DNA of 64,000 nucleotides from an uncultured Gammaproteobacteria bacterium (GCA_963711255.1 CAVQDO010000011.1:59051-123050); one strand, 5' to 3'. Positions 481 to 25,242 are shown, counted from the stretch's first letter. The notes: a model not told the origin generated them from the letters alone. Made by a program: numbers and translations.

Positions 481-948
481 ATGAATGATAATACGAAAGA
501 AGAAATGAGCATTAATGATGTTGATGCGAGCTTTTCCAGTGGTATTGCAGCATTTGAAGCGAAAAACTTTAAACAGTCACTGCAGTTTCTGGGGCCGCTG
601 GCTGAAGCGGGTGATGCCGAATCGCAGCACCGCTGTGCCATCATGTATCAAAACGGCCTGGGTGTCGTCGCCAATGAAGCTAAAGCTGTTGAATATATGA
701 AAGCTGCCGCTGAGCAGGGACATCCGGTTGCACAGCATGGACTGGGTTTTATGTACATGGAAGGCGAGTGTGTGGATAAAGACGCTCAGCAGGCCGTTAA
801 ATGGTTTACCAAAGCAGGTGAGCAGGGGCTGGTTGGTTCCTTGACGACCCTGGCGATGATGTATCAGGAAGGTAAGGGCGTCGAAAAAAATCCGGAAGAA
901 GCAAAACGCCTGTACAAGCTTGCCGGTTTTGATGATATGCAGTTTTAG
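481..948 (+). CDS. Sel1-like repeat protein
   Basis: Repeated A(Q)xxLGxMYxxGxGVxxxxxxAxxWxxKAAEQG-type motifs. Confidence 0.9.
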   Translation: MNDNTKEEMSINDVDASFSSGIAAFEAKNFKQSLQFLGPLAEAGDAESQHRCAIMYQNGLGVVANEAKAVEYMKAAAEQGHPVAQHGLGFMYMEGECVDKDAQQAVKWFTKAGEQGLVGSLTTLAMMYQEGKGVEKNPEEAKRLYKLAGFDDMQF

Positions 949-1006
949 TCTTTGCCGTTTGCAGGCAACAAAGTTTATTGATTAATTATTAGAAGATACA
1001 AATATT

Positions 1007-2047
1007 ATGCGTCCAGCACATTTATTAACCGTCGTAGAAAAAGAATATATAAGTACACAAAGCGGACATCACACACCTGTGATGTTGTGGGGTGCACCGG
1101 GTGTGGGTAAATCACAGATGGTGGCGCAGGTTGCTGAAAATCAGGATACGCCATTAATTGATATTCGTTTGTCTCAGATGGAGCCCAGTGATTTGCGCGG
1201 TATTCCATTCAAAGTCGAGAATACTGTTGAGTGGGCTGTGCCCGCGATGCTGCCTGATGCAAAACGCCACGGTGACAAAAGGCATTTTGTTTCTTGATGA
1301 AATCACTTCCGCACCGCCCAGTGTTTCAGCGGCTGCCTACCAGTTAATTCTCGACAGAAAACTGGGTGAATACGAAGTGCCTGAAGGCTGGGCGATTATT
1401 GCTGCCGGAAACGGCAGGGCGATCGCGGCGTTACCTACAGTATGCCGGCACCGCTGGCTAATCGCTTTTCGCACTACGAAGTGGATATTAATCTCGACGA
1501 CTGGGTCGCCTGGGCATATGCCAATGGCATTGACGAACGTGTTATTGCTTTTTTGCGTTTCAGGCAGGATTTATTATTCGAGTTTGATGCTTCACAAAAC
1601 CCGGTTGCCTTTCCGTCACCGCGTTCGTGGGAATTCGCGCATCGCGCATTGCATAAATTTGAAGATCATCCGGAATTATTTTCCGGTGCTTTACAGGCCT
1701 GTGTCGGCAAGGCTGCGGGTATTGAGTTAGCTGCATTTATTGCCAGCCTTGATCAAATGCCTGATCTTGATGCCATCATAAATGGCGAAGAAGTTGAAAC
1801 ACCAAAAGAAATTGATTTGCAGTATGCCGTGGCAACTGCACTGGTTGGCCGTGCTATTCGTGCAAAAGAAACCGATGAGGCGATGAAGGTACACGGCAAT
1901 ATTCTGAGTTACGCCAATCGTTTCCCGCAGCGTGAAATGGGTGTGATGATGGTTTCCGACATGCACCGTGCTATTGGCCAGGATATTTTCAGTGTACCTG
2001 AGTTTGCCAACTGGGCAGATAAGATAGCTGATTTAATGTTGTATTAA
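1007..2047 (+). CDS. MoxR-family AAA+ ATPase, split by two apparent frameshifts (~1279, ~1412)
   Basis: Walker A GAPGVGKS, Walker B ILFLDEI, and AGN-RQGDRG...MPAPLANRF reconstructed across three ORFs. Removing one A from an A-run and adding one C restores a single frame. Confidence 0.88.
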
Positions 2048-2055
2048 AAGATGAA

Positions 2056-2217
2056 TTAACCGCAGATTAGGGCAGGGATACCCGTAACTAGAGTAACGCA
2101 GGAGCAGTTACCGAGACAATGTGCCTGTTCTCACGCAAGGCATAAGACGAAAAGTATTGAATTATGCTGATCAATAATTAAAATGTTTTCTCTGCGCCTC
2201 CGCGTCTCTGCGGTAAT
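2056..2217 (+). repeat. Intergenic inverted-repeat element (ACCGCAGAGACGC-type arms) with a 48-bp insert at 2067-2114
   Basis: Left arm aaccgcaga[insert]gac; right arm tctctgcgcctccgcgtctctgcggtaa. Near-identical element in reverse at 5785-5932. Confidence 0.8.
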
Positions 2218-2243
2218 TTTTTTGTTTTTAAGTTTTAAATATT

Positions 2244-3503
2244 ATGAGCGATTATCCCGACGTTGAACAAAAACTTGCTACTGCCAGAACTCGTTTGATT
2301 CTGGACAAGCCATTTCTTGGCGCGCTGGTTTTACGCCTGCCCATGGTGGCGGGTGACCCTAAATGGTGTGAAACGACATTTAGTGACGGCAAGACGTTCT
2401 ATTACAACAACGATTACATTGATGCACTGGATCAGGAGCAGACCCAGTTCGCGTTATCACATGAAGCATTGCATTGTGCGCTCTCGCACTTTCACCGTCG
2501 TGGGCACCGGATAAAACTGCGCTGGGACCTGGCCTGCGATTACGCGGTTAATCCATTGCTTATTAATGACGGATTAAAGCCCACACCGGATGCCATGCAT
2601 CTTCGTGAGTACGAAGGCATGACTGCGGAAGAAATTTATCCCTGCCTGGAAGATAATGAGAATGATGGTGAGCGTGATTTAGAAAACGAAAGTAAATCTG
2701 ACGATGCGGATAACGATGATCAGCAGTCTCGCCAGGATAATAGCGGTGGCGGTAACAAAAAAGAGAAAGAAAACGACGAACAAAGCGAAGGCCAGGGCGA
2801 GCAGGATAAAGACCAGGATGATGCTGGTCAGGGCGGCATGGCACAACAGCCTACGGGTATGACGCAGCAGGAAGAAGATGAACTAAGCCTGCAGTGGGAG
2901 CAGCGTCTTGCAGGTGCCGCGCAGCAGGCATTACAGTCCGGCAAGCTGGAAGGCGATATGGCCAGAATGGTCGACCACCTGTTGCAGCCTAAACTTCCAT
3001 GGCGCATGCTGCTGGCGCGTTACATGTCGGCAACGGCGCGTGAAGATTATAGTTATATGCGCCCGTCATCTCGCCGCGGTGACCCGGCGGTGTACCCCAG
3101 TATGCGCAGTAACGAAACCAATATTGTGGTTGCGGTTGATACTAGCGGCTCGATTGATCAGGAAGAAATTCAGGAATTTATTTCCGAAATCGATGCCATT
3201 AAAAGCCAGGTACGTGCCAGTGTTACACTACTAACCTGTGACTCAACACTGAATTATGGCTGTCCGTGGATATTTGAAGCCTGGGATGCGTTTCAGTTTG
3301 ATGTCGAGATTCGCGGTGGCGGCGGAACAAACTTCAGACCGGTTTTTGACTGGGTTGAAGAGCAGGACAGGGCGCCGGACCTGTTGGTGTATTTTACCGA
3401 TGCAGAAGGTTTATTCCCCGAAGTTGAACCAACGTTCCCGGTGACCTGGCTGGTTAAAGGTAAAGCCACAGTACCGTTTGGTGTTCGCGTTCAGTTGAAC
3501 TAG
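2244..3503 (+). CDS. DUF2201-type putative metallopeptidase plus VWA domain protein
   Basis: HEALH (HEXXH) followed by ACDYAVN, an acidic linker, MIDAS DTSGS, GGGTNF and YFTD. Confidence 0.88.
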   Translation: MSDYPDVEQKLATARTRLILDKPFLGALVLRLPMVAGDPKWCETTFSDGKTFYYNNDYIDALDQEQTQFALSHEALHCALSHFHRRGHRIKLRWDLACDYAVNPLLINDGLKPTPDAMHLREYEGMTAEEIYPCLEDNENDGERDLENESKSDDADNDDQQSRQDNSGGGNKKEKENDEQSEGQGEQDKDQDDAGQGGMAQQPTGMTQQEEDELSLQWEQRLAGAAQQALQSGKLEGDMARMVDHLLQPKLPWRMLLARYMSATAREDYSYMRPSSRRGDPAVYPSMRSNETNIVVAVDTSGSIDQEEIQEFISEIDAIKSQVRASVTLLTCDSTLNYGCPWIFEAWDAFQFDVEIRGGGGTNFRPVFDWVEEQDRAPDLLVYFTDAEGLFPEVEPTFPVTWLVKGKATVPFGVRVQLN

Positions 3504-8488: not shown

Positions 8489-9313
8489 TTAATGATCGTA
8501 TTTTCTTCTTCTAGCCATTGCGGTTAATCCGAGTAATCCAGATGTAAATAACCAGGCTGATGCGGGCAGTGGAACCGGTGGTGCAGGTTCTGTATCGAAC
8601 GCACTGTAGCTTACGTTAGCCTGTGAGAAGTTATAAAACGCGAGGCGTCCATCATTAAAACTGCCGTTGATGTTAATCTCCAGTACATCGTTAACATAGA
8701 CTTCAAGATGGTTGCTCTGAAAGATAAAGCGGAAACTGTAATCCGTATTCGCTAACCAGCCAGTGTCGCCGAGGGTATTTCCACGCGCAAGCTCTTCAAG
8801 GCCACCTGCTGGATTTTCGGCGAAGTTGACGTGTCCCCAGAACTCATCGGCAGTTGGCAGTCCGCTAACCCTGGATACGGCCAGACCTCGAAGGGCGGTT
8901 GAATCAGGCGTGTCTGATGGTGCGCCAAAGTTAAAAGCCTGGGTATTGCGCTTCCAGTCAATCAACAGGTAGTCAGCGTTGGCATTGCTGGTATCTCCCG
9001 GGTTAAAGCCGAGAGCAAAACCAATCATGTCGTCATCGCCACCACCCGAGTTGATGGTTCCTGTTATATCGGAATTAATGGCGTTGAAGTCACTGTGAAA
9101 TAGTGTCGGTTGTCCGTTCACACTTTGCAGCACGGAACTGCCATCAACGGCAACTGTCCAGACACCGGCGCCAAAGCCGGCGACAGCGGGATATGACTCG
9201 GCTGTCCAGGGCGTTAAATCGACAGGAACGGCGAGCACGCTGGCGCTGAAAAGTAAGTTTGCACATGCCGCAAATATTATTGAATGTATAAATAGTGTAA
9301 ATTTGATTAGCAT
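8489..9313 (-). CDS. VPLPA-CTERM protein with a thrombospondin C-terminal-like (lectin-type) domain
   Basis: Signal peptide; DDDMIGFALGF resembles the TSP C-terminal DDDxxGF motif; ends PVPLPASAWLFTSGLLGLTAMARRRK. Confidence 0.85.
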   Translation of the reverse strand: MLIKFTLFIHSIIFAACANLLFSASVLAVPVDLTPWTAESYPAVAGFGAGVWTVAVDGSSVLQSVNGQPTLFHSDFNAINSDITGTINSGGGDDDMIGFALGFNPGDTSNANADYLLIDWKRNTQAFNFGAPSDTPDSTALRGLAVSRVSGLPTADEFWGHVNFAENPAGGLEELARGNTLGDTGWLANTDYSFRFIFQSNHLEVYVNDVLEININGSFNDGRLAFYNFSQANVSYSAFDTEPAPPVPLPASAWLFTSGLLGLTAMARRRKYDH

Positions 9314-20484: not shown

Positions 20485-20571
20485 TTGATTTCTGCTAATG
20501 CTTGAAGACAAAGTTCGCCATTCCGGAGCAGGTAATCAATTGGGTTTTTACTGGTTTGTTTAAACAATAAA

Positions 20572-20611
20572 AGGGGAAGAGGAAGTATGTAATAAGTCCT
20601 CTATCCCCTTA
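20572..20611. terminator. Hairpin between convergent genes
   Basis: aggggaagagga...tcctctatcccct. Confidence 0.5.
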
Positions 20612-20639
20612 TATTTGTTAGTTGATAAGATTTTTAAAA

Positions 20640-21050
20640 TCAATCCTCTTCAGGTACACCCTGCCAGAGCATTTCATAACCGACTTCGAAGGTTGCATCG
20701 CAAAAATCAGCTAGATGAGAAAACTGCTCTTTGAATAATTTGTCAGCGTGTGACTTTTCATGCTGTTCAAATGATTTCCAGTAGGTGACTATGACCATGT
20801 CGCCCATGTTCTGCTGTATGCGTTTGTCGGGTTTATCAGGCATAACGCTGCCTTCATCGGAGATAAAGCCGGCATTCTTGAATACCTGGCCACCGATAAA
20901 ACCGCCATGATCATCACCGTAGTTGTTTTTCACTACGTTACACATCTCGCCCAGAACCAGTTCGACATCACTAACTTTGACTCCTTCTTTCAGATCAACG
21001 ACATTAAATAACATGACACAGCCAAAGGGTATTTTGATAGGGTTAAACAT
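20640..21050 (-). CDS. Hypothetical dimeric alpha-beta-barrel protein with SOR-like Cys/His-X3-His/Glu motifs
   Basis: 136 aa with a GGAG RBS; TYWKSFEQHEKSH is ABM-like. See findings. Confidence 0.8.
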   Translation of the reverse strand: MFNPIKIPFGCVMLFNVVDLKEGVKVSDVELVLGEMCNVVKNNYGDDHGGFIGGQVFKNAGFISDEGSVMPDKPDKRIQQNMGDMVIVTYWKSFEQHEKSHADKLFKEQFSHLADFCDATFEVGYEMLWQGVPEED

Positions 21051-21377
21051 AGTTTGCTCTCCTGCAATTAATACATAAACATGTATATATGGGCACGGTT
21101 AGCGTTTTACAATACTTACTTAACACAAGTTTTATCCATACTATAGTTATGGTAGAAAAAGTAGGCATGGGCGATTGGGTGAGCAGCTCTAAAGTTTGTG
21201 GCTTTTATAAGCAGGCATTTTAAAGTGTCGATGTTACTAACGAACGTAATTGCTTATGGTTAATATGCAGTACTTCCAACCTGAAGAGACAGAGAATATT
21301 CTATTCTACTATAAGTATTATGGACTACTTCCTTATCCTGTTAATATCAAGTGATCGTAAACGAGAAATTTTAGAGT

Positions 21378-22441: not shown

Positions 22442-23393
22442 TCAACTGCTGGCGGCACCAAACCAGAATGATTCATCCTTATCCAGAAACTCCTGCCATG
22501 ACATGTAATGCGAACCATCACAGGAAAATGTCAGGCTGATCATGCCGTTAAAAATATTAATTGAGGCGGAACGCAGATAAAAGGTTTCGTCAGTCAGGCG
22601 CAGTTTCTTCATTGCTTTCATAATCGAAGTAATCCGCCTGCGAGGGATCAGGGCATCATCCGGATAAGCATGCGCCGGATAAAGCAGGCAGACATCTGGG
22701 TGGCCAAGTGCATCTGCATCGAGCATGCGATAACGGAATGGATCAGCCATGAACCAGGCCGTTGCGCGGCTGCTGGAAAAATGGATTACCGCCTGAAACA
22801 TACCGCGCTCGGTAATTAGCTCTTCCATGATGGCACAGGCCACATCAATATTCTGGTCCATCGGGCTTTCGATTCGGTGCTGCATGAAAACACCGCTGCG
22901 TATCGCCGGGTCACCTTTAATCTGACGCCACTCTCCTGATTCTTCATAGAGTTCTGATGTTACCGGCAGGTCACGCAGGTCAAAATCCACACCTAGATAC
23001 CCCAGTACCTGGTCATTATGCCTCACCACTTGCAGCGCAGTGATCGAGGGACGACCAGCGCGTAAACTAAGGTAGGCTTCAGATAATAAAAACCCCCATG
23101 AAGGTACTGCTTCACGCATATATGGCCGAGTAGAACGATCACGACCATAATGCTCCTTGTAGCAGTCCTTTGGCACTTACATTATCGGTGATTTGCACAC
23201 CGTTGGTGTCCAGTACGTACATGAACAGGCCGCCAGGTACGGTAGAAAAACCATCAATCAGGACCTCGTTCAGTTTTTCGCGATCTCCAAAAATCGGCCC
23301 GCATCTGGCCGCAAGATTTTCCAGTGGTTGAGACAGGCGTTCAGCGAGCGCAATTCTTTGCCGGTGAACTGCATCTTTCCAGGTTTGATTCAT
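22442..23393 (-). CDS. PDC/Cache-like sensor-domain protein, apparent frameshift at ~23160
   Basis: YVLDTNGVQITDNV joins across the frameshift to GRDRSTRPYM...LSEAYLS...RPSITA...GYLGVDFDLRDLP. Confidence 0.75.
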
Positions 23394-23566: not shown

Positions 23567-24589
23567 TTATAAGTTTTTCAGTGCGCCTTTTTTTAATGCT
23601 TGCTGGCTAAAGACGCCTTTATCACAAATAAAGGCGGTTACATTGTCAACCGGCGTAACATCAAACGCCGGATTGCAAACAGGCGCATTCACCGGTGCCC
23701 AGCACACATCGCCAAAACTACCACGCGCACCACGTACTTCATAGGCCCCACGTTCTTCGATGGGGATGCCATCGCCCGATTCACAGGCAAAATCGATCGT
23801 GGTGTAAGGCGCCACCGGGTAAAAAGGAATATCGTGATATTTGGCAAGTACTGAAAGTGAGTAGGTGCCAATCTTATTGGCGAAGTCACCATTGAGTGCC
23901 ACCCGGTCAGAACCAATGAAGATCTTTTGAATCTTTCCGGTTTTCATCATATGTGCTGCCATGCTGTCGGTGATAATGGAGTAGGGGATTCCTGCCTGTT
24001 CCAGTTCCCACGCAGTCAGGCGACCGCCCTGGAGTAAGGGCCGGGTCTCATCAACATAAACATGAATTTTCTTGCCCTGTTCATGAGCTTTGAAAATAAC
24101 GCCAAGTGCCGTTCCTGCACCAGCAGTAACCAGCCTTCCGGTATTACAATGCGTAAGAACACCATCACCATCCTGGATTAACTCGGCACCGTATTCTGCC
24201 ATCCTGTCGCAGAGTTCTACATCTTCTTCAAAGGCGCTTACCGCTTCTTCTTCAAAATGCTGGTGAAAGTTTTCTTTCTCCAGTTGCGCAAGCATTCGAT
24301 CTATTACCACCATTAGATTAACGGCAGTAGGGCGAGAAGCGCGCAGTGTATTTGCCATCTGCCGAACTTTTTCTCGATCATCGATGTTTTTCGAAAAGCG
24401 AGCCAGTGCAAGTCCGGCTGAAATACCTATCGCAGGTGCGCCTCTGACCTTGAGCATCTGGATAATTTCTACCATGTGATCGATATCTTTAACCAGTATG
24501 AGTTCTTCACTATGGGGTAAAAGCTGCTGGTCGAGTATATAAAGCTCACCGTCTTTAAAACGAATACCCAAAGAGTCTAAATCTCTCAT
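23567..24589 (-). CDS. mtnA: S-methyl-5-thioribose-1-phosphate isomerase
   Basis: LDQQLLP, VRGAPAIG, SRPTAVNL, THCNTG, DETRPLLQG, ANKIGTY, NPAFDVTP. Confidence 0.96.
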   Translation of the reverse strand: MRDLDSLGIRFKDGELYILDQQLLPHSEELILVKDIDHMVEIIQMLKVRGAPAIGISAGLALARFSKNIDDREKVRQMANTLRASRPTAVNLMVVIDRMLAQLEKENFHQHFEEEAVSAFEEDVELCDRMAEYGAELIQDGDGVLTHCNTGRLVTAGAGTALGVIFKAHEQGKKIHVYVDETRPLLQGGRLTAWELEQAGIPYSIITDSMAAHMMKTGKIQKIFIGSDRVALNGDFANKIGTYSLSVLAKYHDIPFYPVAPYTTIDFACESGDGIPIEERGAYEVRGARGSFGDVCWAPVNAPVCNPAFDVTPVDNVTAFICDKGVFSQQALKKGALKNL

Positions 24590-25242
24590 AGGGTTTTATC
24601 TCCAATCTTTTTTCTCATTGTATAAAGCAGATCGATAGTCTCATCATCAAGTTCTGTCACTGCGCCAAAACTTTTTGCTTTAAGTAAAATCTCACAGGCA
24701 TGTTCCAGCCTTTCCATGCCGTTATAAGCTTCGATAAGGTCCTCGCCAAAACTAATTGCACCATGACGTGCCAGAACCATGACTTTAGAGGTTTTAATAT
24801 AGGGGTGCAGTGCCGTCCCCATTTCATGGCTACCCGGTAGCTGGAAAGGAACAATGGGAAGTTTACCAACAGCCAGGATCAGTTCAGAAAAACTTGTCCC
24901 GGGTATTTCTGCTGCGTCAGGGTGAGCAATGCTGTAGGCAATTGCCGTAGGCGGGTGGGCATGAATCACGGTTTTAGCGTCCGGGCGCATCCTGTAAACC
25001 TCAAGGTGCATTATCATTTCACTGCTGGGGTTCCCCTTAAGCACCTTGCCATTAATATCGATAACCGCAATATCATCCGCTGCTAAAAGAAATTTGGGCT
25101 TACCGGAAGGCGTGATGAGTATTCTGCCATCATTGCAGCGGTAACTAATATTGCCATCACATGCCGCCAGCATGTTTTTATGATGTAGCAGGGTGGCGAT
25201 CTTTATTATCTCGTGTTTAATAAGTTGTTCAGAATTATCCAT
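24586..25242 (-). CDS. Class II aldolase/adducin-family protein
   Basis: DGNIS, ITPSG, PSSEMIMH, HAHPP, ARHG; overlaps the mtnA start. Confidence 0.9.
   Translation of the reverse strand: MDNSEQLIKHEIIKIATLLHHKNMLAACDGNISYRCNDGRILITPSGKPKFLLAADDIAVIDINGKVLKGNPSSEMIMHLEVYRMRPDAKTVIHAHPPTAIAYSIAHPDAAEIPGTSFSELILAVGKLPIVPFQLPGSHEMGTALHPYIKTSKVMVLARHGAISFGEDLIEAYNGMERLEHACEILLKAKSFGAVTELDDETIDLLYTMRKKIGDKTL

Follow-up and report, generated by a model that had tools for sequence, protein, structure and literature searches.

A single-domain relative of the catalytic half of sulfur oxygenase reductase in a protein family almost confined to sulfur-oxidising bacteria

Overview

Here, we describe a gene from a stretch of 64,000 nucleotides of an uncultured gammaproteobacterium (GCA_963711255.1, CAVQDO010000011.1:59051-123050; this whole stretch is called the window and positions are counted from its first letter) whose product of 136 amino acids is a single-domain relative of the catalytic N-terminal half of sulfur oxygenase reductase (SOR). 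It belongs to a family for which neither Pfam nor NCBIfam has a model and whose members are almost confined to sulfur-oxidising bacteria. The descriptive part of this statement, that is the open reading frame (ORF), the fold class, the relation to the SOR N-terminal half, the invariance of five residues and the link with sulfur oxidisers, is put forward with good confidence. The full proposal, a homodimeric half-barrel of sulfur oxidisers that is related to SOR and would work as an iron- and persulfide-dependent oxygenase, is more tentative and falls somewhat short of an even chance. No description of the family was found in the full-text literature by searches for SOR-like or mini-SOR proteins, for the product name and for member accessions, supplementary tables not being covered.

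Sequence relationship with sulfur oxygenase reductase

Translation of the ORF, which begins with ATG, gives exactly the 136 residues quoted in an earlier note that had been made from the DNA sequence, and a direct count places cysteines at positions 37 and 117, histidines at 97 and 101 and a glutamate at 122, as given there. The same note had quoted SOR motifs and set C37, H97, H101 and E122 beside the catalytic residues of that enzyme. Both the motifs and the order and pairing of the four residues are recovered by HMMER as well as by profile-profile alignment. The HMMER alignments to the solved SOR chains 2cb2, 6qjc and 7x9w bring together 'gemCnv'/'kvCmv', 'GFiGgq'/'GFvGfq', 'tyWKsfeqHEksH'/'tfWKdwkdHEemH' and 'fEvgYEml'/'wEpiYEii' and pair C37 with SOR Cys31, H97 and H101 with His86 and His90, and E122 with Glu114.

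In a phmmer search of the single protein against all PDB sequences (E <= 10) all nine matches were SORs, with E-values of 0.26 to 0.85 that lie below significance. With a profile of 20 family sequences the first nine places in the PDB were again all taken by SOR (best E 0.0017). When 20 members were scanned singly against Pfam (E <= 1), SOR was matched by nine of them (best E 9.5e-5), an af470-like family by six and the antibiotic biosynthesis monooxygenase (ABM) family by four (best E 0.001). The reference for comparing whole alignments consisted of seven SORs of full length, taken from genomes of the class to which the window belongs. By hhalign the family matched this seven-sequence alignment with E 5.6e-5 (probability 66%), and an 87-sequence family alignment matched the SOR N-terminal half with E 3.4e-5 (probability 72%), whereas the C-terminal half, an internal control that has the same fold but no active site, gave E 0.19 and a probability of 0.3%. 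Since the N-terminal half scores far above this control, the signal exceeds what a mere common fold would produce.

The profile alignment runs from residue 13 to 133 along SOR 8-127 and pairs N16/N11, C37/C33, G50-F51/G41-F42, T89-x-W91/T80-x-W82, H97-E98-x-x-H101/H88-E89-x-x-H92, C117/C103 and E122/E116, all SOR partners being numbered as in the seven-sequence alignment. Y125 is also paired, and with the exception of the tyrosine opposite to it all paired SOR positions are invariant in the seven SORs. In the numbering of the solved enzyme C117 falls on the equivalent of Cys101. According to passages of PMC7398979, the SOR iron is bound by His86, His90 and a bidentate Glu114, the variants H86A, H90A, E114A and C31A had lost both activities, and C101A and C104A had activities that were down ~10-fold. 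At the level of sequence, H97, H101 and E122 correspond to these three iron ligands and C37 to the essential Cys31, at which the persulfide is placed in SOR, and of the two pocket cysteines Cys101 and Cys104 one equivalent, C117, is present in the family.

Besides these aligned and invariant equivalents of Cys31, His86, His90, Glu114 and Cys101, the family and SOR (PF07682, NF047630; 2cb2, 6m35, 6qpa) have in common further motif residues (N, GF, TxW, HE, Y), a long and equally placed insertion between strands 2 and 3, the membership in the alpha+beta barrel superfamily and the occurrence in sulfur oxidisers. The differences are also clear. SOR has ~310 residues in two fused ferredoxin-like halves and forms a hollow sphere of 24 subunits with channels, whereas the protein described here, as the earlier note had remarked, is less than half as long, comprises a single half-barrel and is predicted to form a homodimer. 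The family is without the C-terminal half and without the segment of Cys104, its scores fall short of the curated thresholds, and it is frequently found in genomes that have rDsr and Sox and can occur beside a full SOR. Because of the scores under the SOR thresholds, the deviating length and architecture and the one missing pocket cysteine, the protein should not be annotated as SOR. It stands outside the SOR family as a new single-domain relative of the SOR kind, in agreement with the earlier suggestion of an uncharacterised SOR-related family. Judged from these alignments its likeness to SOR is weak, yet real and specific to the catalytic N-terminal half, which is its nearest described relative by sequence.

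A PF07682 search of the window's own assembly matched only this gene and a paralogue, both under the cut-off, and no full-length SOR was found in this genome by that search. A match of residues 18-46 to Pfam DUF6965 (E 0.0096) is under its cut-off, occurs in three of 20 members and was judged to be due to chance. The ESM Atlas gave no SOR lead; its nearest clusters are unnamed and probably represent the family itself, and DUF6614, DUF6974 and ABM were found there at 0.90-0.91.

The family and its invariant residues

A word-indexed search retrieved 1695 homologous clusters at 90% identity, and the 120 clusters listed among them are 78-99% identical to the query and carry no precomputed Pfam domain. 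Exhaustive phmmer search of 1.84 billion representatives gave 207 clusters at 50% identity, many of which consist of fragments, and when a single genome of each species was scanned with a pattern, at least 549 matching stretches were confirmed. Carriers are found among Thiothrix, Thiofilum, Thiolinea, Cocleimonas, Leucothrix, Candidatus Thiodiazotropha, Candidatus Ruthturnera, Sulfurisoma and Thermocrinis, as well as in Sedimenticolaceae, Ectothiorhodospiraceae, Granulosicoccaceae and Arenicellales. In the sources members are named 'hypothetical protein', 'ligand-binding protein SH3' (with no visible basis) or, in one UniRef name, 'antibiotic biosynthesis monooxygenase'. Searches for fused or longer relatives at 239-2000 and 332-2000 residues yielded just two proteins; both contain unrelated Pfam domains and are read as chimeric gene calls rather than fused forms. 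A 1620-residue match (P0205) was rejected as an unrelated repeat protein.

Two subfamilies can be distinguished, namely type A with ~136 residues, to which the window gene belongs, and type B with ~150 residues and a tail rich in Ala, Glu and Lys. Median pairwise identity is 73% within type A, 78% within type B (sampled genomes) and 37% between them, and 30 positions are conserved and identical in both types. Across carrier genomes that are labelled as different taxonomic families in the sample the identity still amounts to 60-90%. The genome of the window contains one copy of each type, the type-B copy being located on another contig and 37% identical to the protein described here.

Conservation was followed in 87 genome-derived sequences, comprising 68 type-A sequences from named genomes and 19 type-B sequences from sampled genomes. 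For the latter 20 type-B-scoring loci had been fetched, one of which (L108, from G143) gave no ORF to the motif-based picker and was left out. C37, H97, H101, C117 and E122 are present in 68/68 type-A and 19/19 type-B sequences, and the residues which the earlier note had singled out for such a comparison are thereby included.

The type-B paralogue of the same genome (149 residues; contig 4, G000:C4:37853-38248, equal to L005:9824-10273, minus strand) is likewise a stand-alone gene and keeps the Cys/His/His/Cys/Glu set. Its neighbours, as read from the sequence, are an HDOD-like ORF and an ORF of 762 residues resembling an SMC/AAA-type ATPase.

Predicted fold and homodimer

The AlphaFold2 model computed with the family alignment (mean predicted local distance difference test score (pLDDT) 88, predicted template modelling score (pTM) 0.79) has the topology beta-alpha-beta-beta-alpha-beta, thus ferredoxin-like, with a long loop between strands 2 and 3. 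In it C37 is located on the first helix (26-44), H97 and H101 are separated by one turn of helix 94-102, and E122 is found on the last strand (117-126). The modelled fold is that of a generic half-barrel of the ABM or dimeric alpha-beta barrel (DABB) kind. With members of the PF03992 clan such as SnoaB (3kg0), RslO4 (7bio), ActVA-Orf6 (1lq9) and YgiN (1tuv) it has fold and size class in common (Z 12-13, root mean square deviation (rmsd) 2.1-2.5 over ~97-104 residues) as well as the predicted homodimer formation via sheet edges. It differs from them by an additional loop of ~25 residues with a conserved GF-S-EGS motif and by a conserved N-terminal arm. The single protein has no PF03992 match at E <= 10, the few matches among the 20 members are weak, and to our knowledge the invariant Cys/His/His/Cys/Glu set is not common to metal-free ABM enzymes. 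By its predicted fold the protein is a member of the ABM/DABB superfamily, by score it stands outside Pfam ABM.

Prediction of the homodimer gave an interface score (ipSAE) of 0.84, compared with 0.02 for the best control, with a run-to-run contact agreement of at least 78% and a partner pLDDT of at least 83. Of 30 solved homo-pairs 20 attained the mark applied, as did one of 23 single chains; as ABM dimers are already solved and well represented, this result may merely reflect the likeness to those. The predicted dimer joins strand 51-63 of one copy to strand 121-134 of its partner, and residues 1-9, which make up the conserved N-terminal arm, take part in the interface. According to this model the protein is probably a homodimer that closes the barrel. 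The extreme conservation, together with the arm that reaches the partner subunit, suggests extensive contacts, and it is a matter of speculation from the model that an assembly larger than the dimer is formed.

Distribution among sulfur oxidisers

Co-occurrence was followed in 300 genomes that sample the families of the class evenly and comprise the genome of the window. Of these genomes 57 carry the protein family, about a fifth of the evenly sampled families, with type-B-level scores in 43 genomes and type-A-level scores in 16. DsrA was found in 91/301 genomes and SoxB, above or near its cut-off, in 110. DsrA accompanies 52 of the 57 carriers as compared to 39 of the 243 non-carriers, for SoxB the corresponding counts are 52/57 and 58/243, and at least one of both markers occurs in 56/57 carriers and 65/243 non-carriers. 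The Fisher odds ratios range from 33 to 153, with p-values that overstate the co-occurrence because related genomes are not independent. The family can thus be considered almost confined to sulfur-oxidising bacteria, and the co-occurrence with sulfur-oxidation genes that the earlier note had proposed to look for is clearly visible.

In the sole carrier without DsrA and SoxB (G294, 91% complete) there is a canonical SOR of full length. DsrA was found in each of the 16 genomes with type-A-level scores, and a genome of only 1.1 Mb (G187, 99% complete) retains a type-B copy. Full SOR and the family occur together in seven of the ten SOR-bearing genomes. In the window's own genome dsrA is located ~12 kb before the start of the window and soxB on another contig. 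The relation to phototrophy could be followed in seven genomes only: pufM was found in 7/300, and DsrA and the family each in 0/7 of these.

Among the sampled loci there is a single case in which a type-A gene (G095:C96, 292-675, plus strand) and soxB (813-2528, minus strand) lie 138 bp apart in convergent orientation, and this is not a conserved arrangement. The SORs of the sampled genomes include a divergent full-length clade (L090-L093 from G165, G173, G275 and G019, together with G215 and G057) that is ~31-33% identical to the canonical enzymes and matches Pfam SOR with E ~1e-60 to 1e-64, compared with 1e-134 to 1e-141 for the canonical ones. It is present in 6/301 sampled genomes, all six DsrA-positive, and keeps the Cys, His-x3-His, CxxC and Glu positions. 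At another locus (L089, G075:C3, ORF 1246-2403, plus strand) the frame of a canonical SOR match runs on upstream. One possible start would add an N-terminal extension of ~46 residues, with RRKFLK followed by an Ala/Gly-rich hydrophobic stretch, which resembles a twin-arginine signal and would be unusual for SOR; the start codon is uncertain and the genome is GC-rich.

Putative function and its alternatives

From the correspondence with SOR the following mechanism is proposed. In the predicted homodimer of this cytoplasmic, stand-alone protein of ~15 kDa with ferredoxin-like ABM/DABB fold, the barrel which a single SOR chain forms from its two halves would be rebuilt from two copies, yet with two active sites. 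H97, H101 and E122 would constitute a 2-His-1-carboxylate site for mononuclear non-heme iron, and C37, perhaps aided by C117, would hold sulfane sulfur as persulfide or polysulfide. The iron would activate O2, and the bound sulfur would be oxidised to sulfite or thiosulfate. The protein would be a 'mini-SOR' or an enzyme similar to persulfide dioxygenase, with a place in the cytoplasm alongside rDsr and Sox. A reaction of the SOR type on a smaller scaffold seems to be the most economical mechanism, though on present evidence the balance is slightly tipped against its being the right one; iron binding, persulfidation, oxygenase chemistry and physiological role are all deduced from sequence relationships. 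Persulfide dioxygenase (ETHE1/PDO), an enzyme of the cytoplasm, uses mononuclear non-heme iron at a 2-His-1-carboxylate site to convert persulfide sulfur to sulfite with O2. Its fold is that of metallo-beta-lactamases and unrelated to the protein described here, and the likeness is a functional analogy only.

A further-reaching version of this proposal regards the family as hitherto unrecognised, single-domain homodimeric sulfur (persulfide) oxygenases and as a living example of the half-unit whose duplication and fusion gave SOR; with them, mesophilic Sox/rDsr oxidisers including symbionts with reduced genomes would have an O2-dependent means of turning sulfane sulfur into sulfite in the cytoplasm. 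This version must be called rather doubtful. Models of bacterial sulfur oxidation (Sox, rDsr, sHdr, SQR/FCC, SOR) are built from known gene families, and for this family Pfam and NCBIfam have no model. If this version were true, a route from sulfane sulfur to sulfite would be missing in current pathway models. If the protein is a sulfur oxygenase that depends on iron and cysteine, the enzymes known to handle sulfur in the cytoplasm of thiotrophs, both free-living and symbiotic, would increase by one, and a simple 15-kDa model for SOR chemistry and SOR evolution would become available. Even if it is no sulfur oxygenase, its gene is well suited as a marker of sulfur oxidisers and should be given a name.

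Several observations weigh against the oxygenase proposal. At the level of sequence, the single protein reaches only 14.1 bits with Pfam SOR (PF07682; E 0.022, curated cut-off 25 bits) and 13.5 bits with NCBIfam SulOxRed (NF047630; E 0.026, cut-off 400 bits), the hhalign probabilities are just 66-72%, and the equivalent of Cys104, the second pocket cysteine of SOR, would lie inside a stretch of eight residues that is absent from the family. The noisier and more diverse 20-sequence alignment has C37 in every row and a conservation of at least 90% for H97 and E122; H101 is replaced in 4/20 and H97 in 2/20 rows, some of which resemble degraded metagenome calls. That C37 alone among the SOR-equivalent residues is invariant in this alignment would fit a metal-free sulfur-relay protein or persulfide carrier, in which C37 together with C117 (invariant in all 87 sequences) accepts sulfane sulfur and hands it on within the cytoplasmic sulfur traffic toward rDsr or sHdr, while His and Glu serve in acid/base chemistry or binding. 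The strong association with DsrA points in the same direction, the very high conservation within both types could be explained by numerous partners, and metal-free ABM-fold proteins head the structural matches. On the other hand, the H-x3-H...E set aligns with the iron triad of SOR and is as invariant as the cysteines, no conserved sulfur-relay genes adjoin the family gene, and the sulfur carriers known to us (TusA, DsrE, rhodaneses, DsrC) have other folds. A role as sulfur carrier is thus considered unlikely, though it is the alternative to be taken most seriously.

The structural comparison does not single out SOR either. The best PDB matches in Foldseek (E 3e-6 to 1e-4) were methylmuconolactone isomerase (MLMI), hydroxynitrile lyase, olivetolic acid cyclase (OAC), SnoaB and similar proteins; SOR was neither among the Foldseek matches listed nor among the 50 entries that the structural comparison listed from the top 1000 Foldseek chains. 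In the exhaustive comparison, in which 59 of 48,161 PDB representatives reached Z >= 8, RslO4 and SnoaB came first (Z 13.2, ~98 residues aligned) and mostly cofactor-free ABM/DABB proteins led. SOR (6qpa) followed on rank 34 with Z 10.3, an rmsd of 4.4 and the longest alignment (129 residues), and the aligner laid the model on its non-catalytic C-terminal half (residues 147-311) instead of the N-terminal one. With generic barrels ahead of SOR and the aligner on the C-terminal half, structure alone does not decide for SOR. The resemblance to the SOR catalytic domain claimed in the earlier note is borne out by sequence, and by structure generic barrels at Z 12-13 lead. As one sign against its reading that note had named best matches to generic ABM barrels in which the residues do not cluster into one site, and the first half of this sign, the generic barrels, has indeed been found. 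As a whole its interpretation is partly supported.

Most ABM-fold proteins bind no metal. The protein could be an ordinary ABM-type enzyme that works without cofactor on an organic substrate (a monooxygenase, quinol monooxygenase or isomerase), with a likeness to SOR that reflects nothing but the common superfamily. Its best fold matches (SnoaB, RslO4, OAC, MLMI, YgiN and LsrG-type proteins), the ABM and af470-like matches of some members and the UniRef name of one member speak for it. We regard it as very unlikely, because the protein itself is without an ABM match, SOR is matched by more members with better E-value and specifically in its catalytic half, and the distribution tracks sulfur oxidation and not secondary metabolism. 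Furthermore, the insertion between strands 2 and 3 is common to the family and SOR, and the chain of 136 residues exceeds the ~95-110 residues of the top ABM chains. The presence of IsdG, MhuD and HmoB among the structural matches (Z 8.8-10.6) and the invariant histidines bring to mind a haem-binding or haem-degrading barrel with histidine as axial ligand. Since there is no sequence match to the IsdG/MhuD families, these barrels rank below the plain ABMs and the link with sulfur oxidisers would be left unexplained, this is hardly to be expected.

Finally, some observations on distribution and gene order also weigh against the oxygenase proposal. The co-occurrence counts are phylogenetically non-independent, and 39/91 DsrA-positive genomes are without the family, which therefore is not an obligatory part of that pathway. 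At the 80 type-A loci compared, all from named genomes, no neighbour cluster occurs in more than 9/80 (the type-A gene itself was recovered in 68/80, because an antisense ORF displaced it in the others). Among 21 type-B loci the commonest real-looking clusters occur in 5-7/21, several of them likely being spurious antisense ORFs in GC-rich DNA. As the neighbourhoods are not conserved in either subfamily, no operon can be deduced and the sulfur link relies on co-occurrence. A stand-alone gene with variable neighbours, a small predicted dimer with conserved Cys and His, and the presence in only part of the DsrA (52/91) or SoxB (52/110) genomes, as might be the case for an accessory function, are also what one would expect of a sensor, chaperone or protective protein. 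Such a protein (e.g., a sensor of sulfane sulfur or of the redox state, or a stress protein for sulfite or sulfide) would use Cys, His and Glu for binding a metal or reactive sulfur species and not for turnover. It is, however, quite unlikely, as DNA-binding or signalling domains and fused forms are missing, save for the two apparently chimeric calls, and as a core role in these organisms is suggested by the extreme conservation and by the copy kept in a genome of 1.1 Mb. Compared with these alternatives, the proposed iron- and persulfide-dependent oxygenase is the reading we prefer.

Gene and genomic neighbourhood

The coordinates of the gene and its putative signals are compiled in Table 1. 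The start codon is supported by homologues that keep the N-terminal 12 residues. The terminator-like hairpin begins ~30 nt past the stop codon, between the gene and a convergent Zn-dehydrogenase gene, and is followed by a U-run; folding of the RNA 20555-20645 (minus strand) gave -24.4 kcal/mol and a z-score of -5.4, with 0/200 shuffles equally stable. A consensus terminator scan found none at this gene. It missed the hairpin because its rule takes loops of 3-8 nt only and the apical region is longer. A promoter scan near the gene gave two promoter-like sites compared with 3.0 expected from shuffles and thus no evidence of a promoter. The intergenic gaps (155 bp on the downstream and ~330 bp on the upstream side) and the convergent and divergent flanking genes let the gene seem monocistronic, and it looks like a single-gene unit with its own Shine-Dalgarno site and terminator hairpin.

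Table 1. The gene for the 136-residue protein and its putative signals in the window
Feature	Position	Strand	Source
Coding sequence of the SOR-like single-domain protein (136 residues), stop included	20640..21050	minus	ORF list and translation
Shine-Dalgarno-like GGAGAG, 6 nt 5' of ATG	21057..21062	minus	Inference by eye from sequence
Terminator-like hairpin GGGGAUAGAGGA ... UCCUCUUCCCC, then UUUUAUUGUUU	20562..20608	minus	RNA fold

The neighbours in the window encode a Bax1-I family protein, an S30AE-type protein, a LysR regulator, the Zn-dehydrogenase and a class-I glutamine amidotransferase (GATase), further two ORFs without Pfam match and MtnA-like and MtnB-like proteins; no sulfur-specific gene was found among them. 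The two ORFs without Pfam match (E <= 0.001) have 244 and 84 residues (22442-23176 and 23139-23393, both minus strand), are adjacent or overlapping and lie between the amidotransferase and MtnA-like genes; the larger one has no NCBIfam match at E <= 1e-5 either. In the region 23567-25242 (minus strand) an IF-2B family gene (MtnA-like, of the methylthioribose-1-phosphate isomerase type) overlaps a class II aldolase (MtnB-like) gene by 4 nt, and this overlap suggests a methionine-salvage pair. Farther away in the window (8489-9313, minus strand) there is an ORF of 274 residues with a C-terminal VPLPA-CTERM sorting signal (NCBIfam TIGR03370, E 4.4e-9).

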